From assembly GCA_964016885.1 (NCBI GenBank), contig OZ024753.1, positions 38,192,001-38,256,000 of the forward strand: a DNA stretch of 64,000 nucleotides. The letters run 5' to 3'. The notes below the pieces were generated by a model, which worked only from the letters and a program-made list of their open reading frames with translations, searched no databases and was not told the DNA's origin. This document shows, piece by piece, positions 20,090 through 57,892 of this stretch. Within the stretch, counting starts at the first letter, position 1; each line of letters begins with the position of its first letter. The position numbers were made by a program, and so were the translations under genes. Source of the DNA: Eledone cirrhosa (lineage: Eukaryota).

Positions 20090-20159
20090 ATGACACTTCG
20101 GCTCACTGTATTATTTCTCCTCTCTGCTGCTGTAGTTTTATTTTCTATAACAAATGCAG
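20090..20159 (+). CDS. GGNamide/excitatory peptide (GGNG/EP) precursor, coding exon 1: signal peptide
   Basis: ATG...GCAG|GTAAGT (consensus donor, phase 1). Encodes [23 protein letters not shown], with a basic n-region, hydrophobic core and small residues at -3/-1. Confidence 0.88.
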
Positions 20160-20307
20160 GTAAGTGATGCTTACTTTATATATATATGTATATATAATAT
20201 ACTATACTGCATTATACTTTTTTTTGTTTATAATATATATATGGTGTATAAGAAAAACGAAAGATTAAACAAGATTATTGTAATTATGTCATCTCACTTA
20301 AATTTGT

Positions 20308-21160
20308 TTATATATATATATATATATATATATATATATATATATATATATATATATATATATATATATATATATATATGTATATATATGTATATATATA
20401 CATATATATATAGATATATGTATATATATATATACATATATATATGTATATATATATGTACATATATATATATACATATATATTATACATATATATATGT
20501 ATATATATATATATATGTGTATAATATATTTGTATATATACATATACATATATATATATATATACACATATATATACATATATATATATACATATATATA
20601 TACATATATATATTCATATATATATATACACATTTATATATATACATATATATATACACACATATATATATATATATATACATATATATACATATATATA
20701 TATATACATATATATATACATATATATATATATACATATATACATGTATATATATATACATGTATATATATACATATATATATATACATATATATATACA
20801 TGTATATATATACATGTATATATATACATATATATATACATATATACATATAAATATATACATATATACATATATATATATATATATATATATACAAATA
20901 TACACACACATATATACATACATATATACATATATATATATATATATATATATATATATATATATATATATATATATACACATATATATACATATACACA
21001 TATATATACATATATATATATATATATATATATATATACTTATATATACATATATACATATATATACATATATACACATATATACATATATATACATATA
21101 TGTATATATATATATATATATATATATATATATATATATATATATATATATATATATATT
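20308..21160. repeat. (TA)n/(TACA)n microsatellite in intron 1
   Basis: Seen directly. Confidence 0.95.
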
Positions 21161-21189
21161 TATTAAAATAACAGATTAAAGTTTAAGCA

Positions 21190-21640
21190 AAGAATCGCTG
21201 CTTTCACCCTTCACGGGATCTTCTGAAACTAAAAAAGTCAATCTGTGAATGCAGAATTAAATATTCCCAAAAACGTTGCAACCGAAGGAAGACAGGAAGA
21301 CGATACTTTGGTTCGTGGAAACGTTCCCTGGCAAAGAACGGAAAAAAAACGAAGATAATACGTCATTATTTGGTGCGGTGAAAACAATTACACACAAAGA
21401 CAAACCCACGTTTATGGTATAAATGAAGTCGTAGACAATATTCTATTAGGTGGTTCATGGAGACGTTCTCTGGCAATGAACGGAAAAAACGAAGATAATA
21501 CGTCATTATGTGGAGCAATGAGAACAAATCCACGCAAAGACAAAACCATGTAAATGGTATAACTGAAGTCGTAGACTAACATTCTATTTAGGAAACCGAA
21601 TGATTCTCGGCTTCAGAGTTAAGAATAAAGTAAATAAAAT
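21190..21640 (-). mobile_element. Probable Penelope-like 3' region with ~145-bp internal direct repeat
   Basis: GGTTC.TGGA.ACGTTC.CTGGCAA.GAACGGAAAAAA(A)CGAAGATAATA..GTCATTAT...GAAGTCGTAGAC occurs twice. A degenerate hammerhead-like CAGAAGA-TCCC-GTGAA-GGGT-GAAA lies on the minus strand near 21200-21228. Confidence 0.45.
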
Positions 21641-23571
21641 ACAGAGGTAATTGAAATTAAATATATACATACACGCATCCATAACCGTACATACACAAGC
21701 ATACGCGAAAACACTTGCCATGGGTATGACAATACAAGCACGTACACAAAACACACAAAAAAACATGCACGCACATACAGAACCCACGCAAGGCCTGTAC
21801 CCGCACACATACGAAAGTATACACCAAATACACATAAAAATATATATAAAAACATATATACATATACATGTGTGTGTGTGCGTGTATACATAATTAAATA
21901 AACGTATATAAATATACACACAAACATATATACATATACATGTGTGTGTGTGCGTGTATACATAATTAAATAAATGTATATAAATATACACACATAAATA
22001 CGTATATAACGCGTGTACACACACACCTACAAGTAAATACACACATGTTCGCGGACGTACGTCAACCAAAACACAAAGTACACATATACACACACCCTAC
22101 ATACGTACGAACCCGCATACTCACACAGGCGCAAAACTCACGTATACACAAAACCAAATGCACATGTACCAGTATATATAAAATATACGCCAATAACATA
22201 TATATATATATATATAGGTGGATAGATATATTTGTAAGATAAATTTCAAAATTAAAGTTTGTATTTCTTCATAAAAGTTGTCCATTCTGACAGAAAACTT
22301 TATTTGTATTATATTATTATATGTAATAAGCATTTGATTTAGAGGAGCAAAACCACTTCAAACAGAAATGCACACACGGTCGCAAACACACACATGACAT
22401 GTATTTTTATGTATATATATATATATATATATATATATATATATATATATATATATATATATATATATATATATATATATATATATATATATATGACCAC
22501 TTTTTCAGTTTGTATGGCGTTTGAACATATTGTTTAGCTCTAGTTTTCTTAACTATTGGAGCGCTTGCCAGCATATCTACGATTTTGCGTTTCGTTTCGC
22601 TTTTTCTACCGGCCGAAATACGATTCTCGCTGAATTTATATATATATATATATATATATATATAAATATATATATAAATATATATATATATATATATATA
22701 TATATATATAATATTTATATATATAATATTTATATATATATAAGTGTGTATTGTGAAATTATGCCTTTAGTTCGATATAAGAAGTCCTGGGACGTCTATA
22801 AAATCCTTCTAATGTTATACAAAACTCAATACACTCAGGCATAATACATACATAACCACTCTTTACTTCACGGTCCTACAGTCTACATTCAGAACCTTTG
22901 GCATGTGTCTGTGTGAAAATATATTTGTTTAAAAGTTTAAGTAAAACATCGGCTTTCGTGGGAAAGTTTTTCGCAGTATGTATTACTATAGAAACGCGTT
23001 TGGTAGATTCCTGTCTTCAATCTCTGATGTTTGAGAATAAATTACGGCAATTAACACACATACACACACAAACAAACACACGTATATATATGTTCTATCA
23101 AACTTATACTACAGTAACCAACTCCAGAAGCTTATGATCAACCAAACTAATTATATATATATATATATATATATATATATATATATATATATATATATAT
23201 ATATATATATATATATATATATATATATCGGCGCTTCTCAATATGAAGTCTGCAAAGATCTAATTCAGCTAAGTTCAAAATTCCCAGTACTTTGTTAAAA
23301 ACATAATATACACATACAATTGGTTATCCATTCTTCTCTAAGTATAAATGTGTTATTATCACGGAATAATAATTTGGACTGGAAATAATTGTATGTGTGT
23401 GTGTTGCATAAGGAAATTCATTCAAATAAAATGGGTCCTTAGTGGTGAAAAGATTTATATAATTAGAACATTTGGTGTTGTTCTTGTTGTTCCCGTTATT
23501 TATTCATGTAAACCTTAATCAAACAGACCTATAATCTGAACCTTACCATCCTGTCGTTTGTGTGTCTATGC

Positions 23572-55835: not shown

Positions 55836-56908
55836 CATTATTAAGTTAAGATTTAGAAAAATTTTTTAATTATTATTTATAAAAACGTAGATATCAGCAG
55901 CATATATAACCGATCAATATCCCAATGGTTCCATCTCGCACAGTGTGGGAGAACGCTCTCTGGTGTTCAGAAAGAATCCCAGACGCAAGCCACCTCGTAC
56001 CCCCAGCAAACAGATTGGAGAAAACGTTACCTGGGAGTATAATAATGAGTAGGGAGGGAGATACATTGAAATAGTCTTTCTAACTCCCCGGGATCACTGC
56101 TGCAGGTGGAAAAATTGTAATTCGTTTCAGTCTAACATCACATACGTTTCTCAAATAGCAACACAATTAACCAAAGCACTATCGTTTCCGAAATTGCAAA
56201 ATGATCAAACGAGAAAATTACAGACAAATAAAAACAAAATATGCAAATATAGCTGTGCTTTCATTCTAAAAAGGAAATTGCTCATTTAACATAGCCTATG
56301 ACCCATAAAACATTGCTTTTATACTGTTCAACGATTAATGGAGATATTTAATCTTTCTGATTTTTTTTATCATGGACGTTTAATCTTGCTGGGTTTTTAA
56401 AATTTTTTTTTTTATCACAGACGTTTAATTTTTAACAGTCACGAAATAAATGTTGTAAATTGTATAACCTAAATCATTTATATGTATGTTTACATGTATG
56501 TGTATGTGTCTGTGCATGTCTGCATGTGTTTGTATGTGCGTGCATGTGTATATCAGTGTGTGTGTCTACGTGTGTGTGAATGTTGTTTTGTTATACTTAA
56601 TGTATATATATATATATATATATATATATATATATATATATATATATATATATATATATGTGTGTGTGTGTGTGTGTGTGTGTGTGTGTGTGTGTGTGTG
56701 TGTGTGTGTGTGTGTGTGTGTGTGTGTGTGTGTGTGTGTGTGTGTGTGGTAATAAGTAAAATCCAAACGGAGGCCCCACTTCTCTGGTTCGGTTGGCCTG
56801 CTATATATTGCAAAGAGAACTTCATAACCATTCGATCGTGCCTGCGCCCATGCGCCGTACGTAGATTATAGGTACTCGTATTTACCAATTTATTCTCTTT
56901 CATTTCAG

Positions 56909-57096
56909 GAAATGGTAAAAGAAGTGCGATGGATGCCTCAAACCGTGATGAACAGTTGATGAAAATCCTTTCGCGAGGGTTAGCAGACAAGCGGGCCATA
57001 CGCAGTGAAATTGATGACGAAACAGTCCTTCCCCTAGAAATGACATACGACCGTGCTGTGAGACAGACTGATTTTTCGCCAATAATGAAGAGATTG
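56909..57096 (+). CDS. GGNamide/EP precursor, coding exon 3: amidation/cleavage site and C-terminal propeptide
   Basis: TTCTCTTTCATTTCAG|GA AAT GGT AAA AGA... gives (G)NGKRSAMDASNRDEQLMKILSRGLADKRAIRSEIDDETVLPLEMTYDRAVRQTDFSPIMKRL|GTACTG. Phase 1 to 0; GKR amidation signal and two further KR sites. Confidence 0.9.
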
Positions 57097-57198
57097 GTAC
57101 TGTATATTATAATATAATATAATATAATATAATGTAGTTGAATATGATATAATATAATATAGTTTAATATGATATAATATAATATATGATATGATATA

Positions 57199-57390
57199 AT
57201 GGTTTCTGATTTAGGTACAAGGCCAACAGTTTTGGCAGAGGGGAAAGTCGATTAAATTAACTCCAGTGCGTTACTGGTACTTTATTTTATGGATCCCATA
57301 AGGATGAAAGACAAAGTTAACCTCGGTGGAATTTGAACGCAGAACATAAAGGGACGTAACTATATGTGCAAAGCATGTTGTACGACGTCT
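57199..57390 (-). mobile_element. SINE (family A) in intron 3
   Basis: Matches the reverse complement of the consensus. Confidence 0.85.
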
Positions 57391-57856
57391 GATAACAAAA
57401 GAACATGTACCACCTTAAACAGATGTTCATAGTAAACATTTATAAGCAGCTTTTATGAAAGAATAAATAAATAAATGTAAGCGGGCCCTGAATCATTGAC
57501 TAGGGCTCGAGAAGTACAACGAAAATGTCTACATAAGTGAATTTAATAGTTTTTGTGTGTTTTTCAAGACTGAAATAACTCTTCTGTAATATATTACTCA
57601 ATACAAAGAGACAAATGAAAATGTAAAATGAAATTAACAGTTTTTGTCTGAGTCTGTCTGTGCGCGCGCGCGTGCGCGCGCGCGTGTGTGTGTGTATACA
57701 TATATATGTGTGTGTGTATGTGTGTGTATGTGTGTGTATATATATATATGTGTGTGTGTATTTCTGAATAGCGAAAATGATTCTTCCACGTTGTAACTGA
57801 TAATAATGGACAAATTATAACTTTATCTTTGATTTATTTCCCTTCTATTTTTTCAG

Positions 57857-57892
57857 GCGAAAATCATTATGTCTGAAGAACCACAGAACTGA
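57857..57892 (+). CDS. GGNamide/EP precursor, terminal coding exon
   Basis: CCTTCTATTTTTTCAG|GCG AAA ATC ATT ATG TCT GAA GAA CCA CAG AAC TGA = AKIIMSEEPQN*. Phase 0; followed by an A-rich 3' UTR with AATAAA. Confidence 0.72.
   Translation, partial: AKIIMSEEPQN

Follow-up and report, generated by a model that had tools for sequence, protein, structure and literature searches.

The window considered here is a stretch of 64,000 nucleotides on contig C13 of the 3.0-Gb genome of the octopod Eledone cirrhosa (33% GC, 28% tandem repeat). On its forward strand lie four small exons, spread over 38 kb, that make up one spliced gene, in our reading the octopod member of the excitatory peptide (EP)/GGNG family of neuropeptides, which is related to CCHamide. 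A sequence-only reading of the window had joined these exons through GT-AG introns in phases 1, 1 and 0. When we recomputed the model from the window DNA, every exon fell exactly where it had been placed: the exons sum to 333 nt, encoding 110 amino acids and a stop, and the introns again measure 18121, 18589 and 760 nt. The features of the gene are as follows.

19955..20089, + strand: 5' untranslated part of exon 1; its extent is the reach of a contig from run X1 (see below), and the true start may lie further out.
20090..20159, + strand: coding part of exon 1, 70 nt; predicted signal peptide (residues 1-23) and the first base of codon 24.
20160..38280, + strand: intron 1, 18121 nt, phase 1, GT-AG; 34% tandem repeats.
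38281..38319, + strand: exon 2, 39 nt; nearly all of the predicted mature peptide (Cys26, the ring NRRNIHA, Cys34, Met and Gly36).
38320..56908, + strand: intron 2, 18589 nt, phase 1, GT-AG.
56909..57096, + strand: exon 3, 188 nt; Gly37-Asn38, the amide-donor Gly39, Lys-Arg at 40-41 and the C-terminal associated region.
57097..57856, + strand: intron 3, 760 nt, phase 0, GT-AG, with the weaker donor GTACTG.
57857..57892, + strand: coding part of exon 4, 36 nt; 11 residues and the stop.
57893..58005, + strand: 3' untranslated region, its extent again the reach of the X1 contig; AATAAA at 57947 and 57985.

The acceptors of all three introns are pyrimidine-rich, and the first two donors both read GTAAGT. 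Support for the splicing comes from sequencing runs that hold exon 3. There are four of these (X1 to X4), all from a single study; none is recorded as RNA, their tissue is unrecorded, and we did not take them as a guide to expression level. In X1, a contig of 581 nt at a depth of 9.2 spans 19955-20159 and continues with the letters of exon 2, and a contig of equal length and depth spans 56907-57097 exactly, with exon 2 letters before it and exon 4 letters after it. Because the two matches share length and depth, and because the exon lengths total 581 (205+39+188+149, provided that exon 4 reaches 58005), we take them to be one contig, for which 255 letters beyond exon 1 are given against 376 expected, probably because of a length cap. 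All three junctions and the reading frame are thus supported, by one contig in one of the four runs of one study. The earlier reading had staked the gene on transcripts joining 20159 to 38281 and 38319 to 56909 in the proposed frame; both joins are bridged in X1, and the frame holds. In X2 to X4 the exon 3 region lies in unspliced contigs and exon 1 has no cover, a gap that is not proof of absence there. The spliced contig is unlikely to stem from a processed retrocopy, because exon 3 matches the genome only once.

Several smaller observations attach to the gene model. The exon 3 donor is seen in X1 in its spliced form only; read-through past it (57097-57117) would meet a stop six codons on, like a faulty gene model of Octopus bimaculoides described below. 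The X1 contig ends 15 nt past the second AATAAA, with a T-rich tract downstream, and a poly(A) site near 58005 is possible, a contig alone being no proof of a transcript end. An out-of-frame upstream open reading frame (ORF) of 11 codons (19957-19992, + strand) stands at the very start of the 5' untranslated part of that contig. Intron 1 holds two minisatellites, one with a 58-bp unit repeated 32 times (94% matches, window 24888-26761) and one with a 121-bp unit repeated 10.5 times (98% matches, window 33229-34493). The window has no Rfam match, and none of its 11 non-microsatellite ORFs matched Pfam.

Complete orthologues of the product are already on record. The O. vulgaris protein (CAI9727000.1), to which exon 3 is 79% identical, clusters with the RefSeq proteins of O. 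sinensis (XP_029639638.1) and O. bimaculoides (XP_014768932.1); each is 107 amino acids long and labelled 'uncharacterized', and in whole-length alignment with the window product the three share 84-86 of 110 columns (76-78%). The last codon of exon 3 together with exon 4 is identical to the Octopus orthologues at 10 of 12 residues. A fourth octopod orthologue, from Argonauta hians (GAB1603730.1), came from a profile search (E 5.5e-19); the HMMER profile search covered 1.84 billion representatives and gave three hits. Alignment A1 against near-length proteins matched P0001 alone among 13 candidates, and when exon 3 was compared with longer proteins none of nine candidates scored. One further candidate, P0005 (Bulinus truncatus KAH9492006.1), was rejected as a repeat-driven match; it is an unnamed precursor of 795 amino acids with many repeated helical peptides ending in Gly-Lys-Arg. 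All four octopod orthologues match E. cirrhosa over the whole precursor and have a seven-residue ring free of Trp, Phe and Tyr, and none of them carries a neuropeptide name. The middle one of the precursor's Lys-Arg pairs (residues 64-65; a further pair lies at 97-98, both in the region encoded by exon 3) is present in E. cirrhosa and missing from all four.

These records bear on two claims of the sequence-only reading. The gene is less hidden than it had asserted, full-length unnamed orthologues being available for three Octopus species and Argonauta. Its warning that automated annotation could miss or truncate such a gene is borne out by one O. bimaculoides model, Ocbimv22005111 in supplementary file 3 of PMC6425005, which holds exon 3 only, follows it on from a microsatellite-derived N-terminus, reads past the exon 3 donor and contains no peptide; it does not extend to RefSeq and GenBank, where the precursors of the three Octopus species are complete. 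Current databases, then, predict the gene correctly but leave it unnamed. In that supplementary file the faulty model stands among entries labelled EP/GGNG, as judged from the labels of its neighbours.

The family assignment made by the earlier reading holds, and it does so on the family layout, the octopod orthologues and a likeness to squid. In its passages on the family, PMC6617912 defines EP/CCHamide by two Cys, amidation, a single peptide directly behind the signal peptide, and Gly-Gly or Gly-Ala, to which spiralians add Asn ahead of the Gly-Lys-Arg signal, with a ring that commonly holds an aromatic residue (Trp in trochozoans) and a His. The window product has one ring motif, directly behind a hydrophobic N-terminus (hydropathy 1.8-3.0 across about the first 20 residues) that is predicted to be a signal peptide. 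Cys26 and Cys34, between which the ring bond is predicted, are the sole Cys of the precursor and are kept in all five octopods; a ring His is present (His32); and residues 36-41 read Gly-Gly-Asn-Gly-Lys-Arg across the exon 2/3 junction that X1 bridges. Aplysia EP/CCHa, Thais TEP-1 and TEP-2, leech LEP, earthworm GGNG and Lineus EP, as presented in PMC12969411 and PMC6617912, share the layout, the two Cys and the Gly-Gly-Asn amide, and like E. cirrhosa they have a His that one residue separates from the second Cys. The leech and Thais sequences quoted in the earlier reading match those in PMC12969411 Table S3.

The squid precursors of PMC6425005 supplementary file 3 (Doryteuthis pealeii, expressed sequence tag JK324610.1, and Idiosepius notoides) likewise carry the peptide directly behind the signal peptide. 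Compared by eye, they resemble E. cirrhosa in Gly-Gly-Asn-Gly-Lys-Arg, the end of the signal peptide, a helix after the cleavage site, the middle Lys-Arg and the C-terminal tail. Because the Gly-Gly of the peptide is where Ocbimv22005111 starts and where one Idiosepius transcript in PMC6425005 diverges, the comparison suggests that octopus and squid EP genes have intron places in common. A Sepia GGNG is also cited in PMC6617912. The E. cirrhosa gene thus appears orthologous to published EP/GGNG members, and on homology we regard its predicted identity as settled. Other systems, related to EP through their receptors, differ in form: arthropod CCHamide-1 and CCHamide-2 have a six-residue ring with Tyr or Phe and a His-amide end (6/6 in PMC12969411 Table S3), vertebrate GRP and neuromedin B have no ring, and endothelins, which lack an amide, have two disulfides.

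What the sequence-only reading overlooked is the ring itself, which has seven residues rather than eight and has lost its Trp. The ring reads NRRNIHA in E. cirrhosa and TKKNLHV in Argonauta; O. vulgaris and O. sinensis share SRHNLHA, and O. bimaculoides has NRHNMHA. Five positions ahead of the second Cys, E. cirrhosa has Arg, Octopus His and Argonauta Lys, whereas the lophotrochozoan peptides in Table S3 of PMC12969411, 18 of 18, have Trp there within an eight-residue ring. Among the 43 lophotrochozoan entries of PMC6425005, squid included, Trp is present by eye in 42 of 42 rings, the 43rd entry being the ringless octopus model; the peptide sets of the two papers overlap and include near-duplicates. 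Because the Trp is kept in the compared lophotrochozoan rings, those of squid among them, its loss looks specific to octopods. The squid ring has six residues, with Trp at the usual site plus a Tyr, whereas the octopod ring has seven and neither. Although E. cirrhosa, with seven ring residues, departs from the eight-residue spacing of canonical trochozoan EP, the spacing is not strict family-wide, since 37 of the 42 rings of PMC6425005 have eight residues, three squid rings have six and two solenogaster rings nine, and rings of seven that contain Trp are found in Dinophilus and Novocrania (PMC6617912 supplement). With no ring aromatic in five of five octopods against Trp in 42 of 42 rings, we class the predicted E. 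cirrhosa peptide as a variant rather than a typical EP member.

We searched the genome for a second, canonical gene. A pattern for a Trp-containing EP paralogue matched seven times against two in the control; five of the seven loci were translated, the other two being repeats of the match at locus L007, and none of the five runs into Asn-Gly-Lys-Arg or a phase-1 donor. The pattern can match only where a single exon carries Lys-Cys, the His and the ring, and absence is thus not proven by it. Protein searches of the genome returned exons 2 and 3 only, plus weak matches with E >1; one locus, L004, was translated and has stops. Within these pattern and protein searches, this is the sole EP/GGNG gene found in E. 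cirrhosa.

To look for a candidate receptor we used a short stretch of the EP receptor of Lineus (PMC6617912) as a pattern, which gave two matches against one in the control and led to one gene.

L012:1285-2443 (contig C2:155,326,250-155,327,408), + strand: intronless bombesin/endothelin-type receptor gene.

Among receptors of solved structure, the part of this gene from transmembrane helix (TM) 2 to TM7 comes closest to BRS-3, NMBR and GRPR (E ~1e-50), the next family reaching 4e-29, and the TM1-TM2 part has endothelin B as its best match; EP/CCHa receptors belong to the bombesin/endothelin clade in the account of the Aplysia EP study. In the assembly the gene lies in two frames, with a one-base shift in TM2 where an extra base falls among four consecutive C (about C2:155,326,538-541). 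Along the endothelin B chain 8xwp the two pieces follow each other without a gap; both are otherwise open, and their DRY-like, CWLP and NPxxY-like motifs are intact. An extra base in a homopolymer C run is a typical assembly error, and such an error is likelier here than a real break. The genome searches gave no second close copy, the next hits having 30-44% identity; by analogy with Aplysia, a divergent second receptor type could be among the remaining G protein-coupled receptor (GPCR) hits. One other locus, L030 (contig C11:17,437,640-17,438,278), resembles a GPCR but is interrupted by two stops, and it may be a pseudogene or contain an intron.

We consider it highly probable that the gene is the octopod EP/GGNG orthologue, and that it yields a 15-residue, disulfide-ringed, amidated peptide without Trp, whose likely target in brain and gut is a receptor of the bombesin/endothelin type. 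The predicted signal cleavage follows the small-residue rule, and the remaining predicted steps follow established prohormone processing. Signal peptidase would cut after Ala23 and a convertase at Lys40-Arg41; the amide would be made from Gly39 by carboxypeptidase and the amidating enzyme, and a disulfide between Cys26 and Cys34 would close the ring. The squid precursors published in PMC6425005 (supplementary file 3) give a further basis for the predicted signal cleavage. The mature peptide would then be residues 24-38, with a computed monoisotopic mass of 1640.76 Da.

In Aplysia, EP was detected by mass spectrometry, acted on two receptors with a half-maximal effective concentration (EC50) of ~30 nM and cut food intake. 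By analogy, the octopod peptide may be released from central and gut neurons and activate its GPCR at tens of nM, and its most likely role would be in satiation and the control of gut muscle or feeding motor output. The conserved His-x-Cys-x-Gly-Gly-Asn-amide end likely carries receptor activation, and the receptor has likely changed at its outer surface to suit the N-terminal half of the ring, which is altered and basic. In GRPR, as pictured in PMC9892485, the ligand inserts its C-terminus deeply, while its Trp lies against the outer end of TM7; by a loose analogy, the octopod ring change would alter how the peptide touches the outer part of the receptor but spare the activating end.

A number of points weigh against this interpretation, and we set them out together. 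None of the five octopod rings has the aromatic residue that PMC6617912 names, and the ring is conserved no better than the spacer, which would be odd for an active peptide: identity to Octopus is 4-5 of 7 in the ring against 54-56 of 69 in the spacer, and to Argonauta 2 of 7 against 28 of 69, although these are small numbers. The equivalence of the EP Trp to the bombesin Trp is itself unproven, and the receptor gene carries the frame shift described above. Aplysia, Thais, leech, earthworm and Lineus peptides have tested receptors or activities, whereas the octopod peptide, its tissue and its activity are predicted from genes. Pfam has no family for exon 3, P0001 or P0004, and for P0003 only one weak, unrelated match (E 0.2); precursor hits in the Atlas are to neuropeptide precursors in general, and its GPCR clusters are likewise generic and not discriminating.

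A rival reading is that the EP system of octopods is decaying or rewired, the Trp having been lost under relaxed constraint, the receptor being truly broken in this genome and the peptide being an orphan or the ligand of another receptor. A ring as variable as the spacer, in a class where two squid genera have identical EP peptides (PMC6425005 file 3), is what such decay might produce, and the receptor shift is exactly one base, its pieces contiguous on 8xwp, with no second close copy among the search hits. We nevertheless find this reading unlikely. The Cys, the His, Gly-Gly-Asn and Gly-Lys-Arg are unchanged in five of five octopods and the gene is spliced; the frame shift has the mark of an assembly error in a gene otherwise open; and a divergent second receptor could sit among the other GPCR hits, given that the two Aplysia EP receptors are reported to share 17% identity.

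Less probable still is that the main active products are others, namely a two-chain peptide made by a cut at Arg28-Arg29 within the ring, or a tail released as a signal at Lys97-Arg98. E. cirrhosa and Argonauta do have a dibasic pair in the ring, but the site is not conserved, reading Arg-His in the three Octopus species. The tail after Lys97-Arg98 is identical to Octopus at 12 of 14 residues, and it is better conserved than the ring in Octopus and, by eye, visibly similar in the squid entries of PMC6425005; precursor-derived peptides have also been seen in the Aplysia oesophageal nerve. Yet only 6 of its 14 residues are shared with Argonauta, and an amphipathic tail may merely serve sorting.

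We give very little credence to the idea that the peptide imitates a neuropeptide of prey, as a component of saliva or venom, instead of serving the octopod as a messenger of its own. Octopus glands do make such mimics (bioRxiv 2026.02.02.703354, main passages) and the ring is divergent, but in those passages GGNG was among the models searched and not among the mimics found, the genome searches found no second canonical EP gene, and the layout is that of a squid neural precursor. Finally, small exons scattered over 38 kb of repeat-rich DNA could in principle be chance matches strung together, but we dismiss this because X1 bridges all three junctions and four database proteins align over their full length. 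Of the 844 stop-free AG..GT segments of 27-60 nt in the window, moreover, just two encode a C-x6-9-C-x-G end, namely exon 2 and one microsatellite.

The EP/GGNG family and its squid members were already known, and the octopus locus had been assigned to the family through a faulty model (PMC6425005, supplementary file 3); the novelty of the gene as such, given these published squid precursors, was overrated by the earlier reading. Main-text motif and topic searches, in which subscription journals were thinly covered, found no octopod EP peptide or Trp loss in the literature, and a prior description is possible; nor did the literature search find an EP structure-activity paper. 'Octopus' is absent from the readable supplements of PMC6617912 and PMC12969411, as is 'GGN' from PMC5736919 and 10.1101/2023.11.27.568875. 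A bolder proposal, which we hold only tentatively and think rather doubtful, is that octopuses rewired an ancient satiation peptide, replacing Trp with a basic residue and letting the ring drift at the speed of a spacer, such that either the receptor co-evolved without cross-activation or the sole receptor is dead here and the peptide an orphan.

The present model supplies the correct predicted EP peptide of octopods, which is missing from the survey in PMC6425005 because the octopus model used there lacks the 39-nt exon for the peptide, and four 'uncharacterized' database proteins gain a name. Because a residue kept in all other compared lophotrochozoan rings is gone in octopods, the gene also serves as a natural experiment that can show which residues a ligand must have for the EP/CCHamide-bombesin-endothelin receptors. 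And because EP is a satiation signal in Aplysia, in the work cited above, the peptide and its candidate receptor may provide a testable handle on the control of feeding in octopuses, including, more speculatively, the fast of brooding females.

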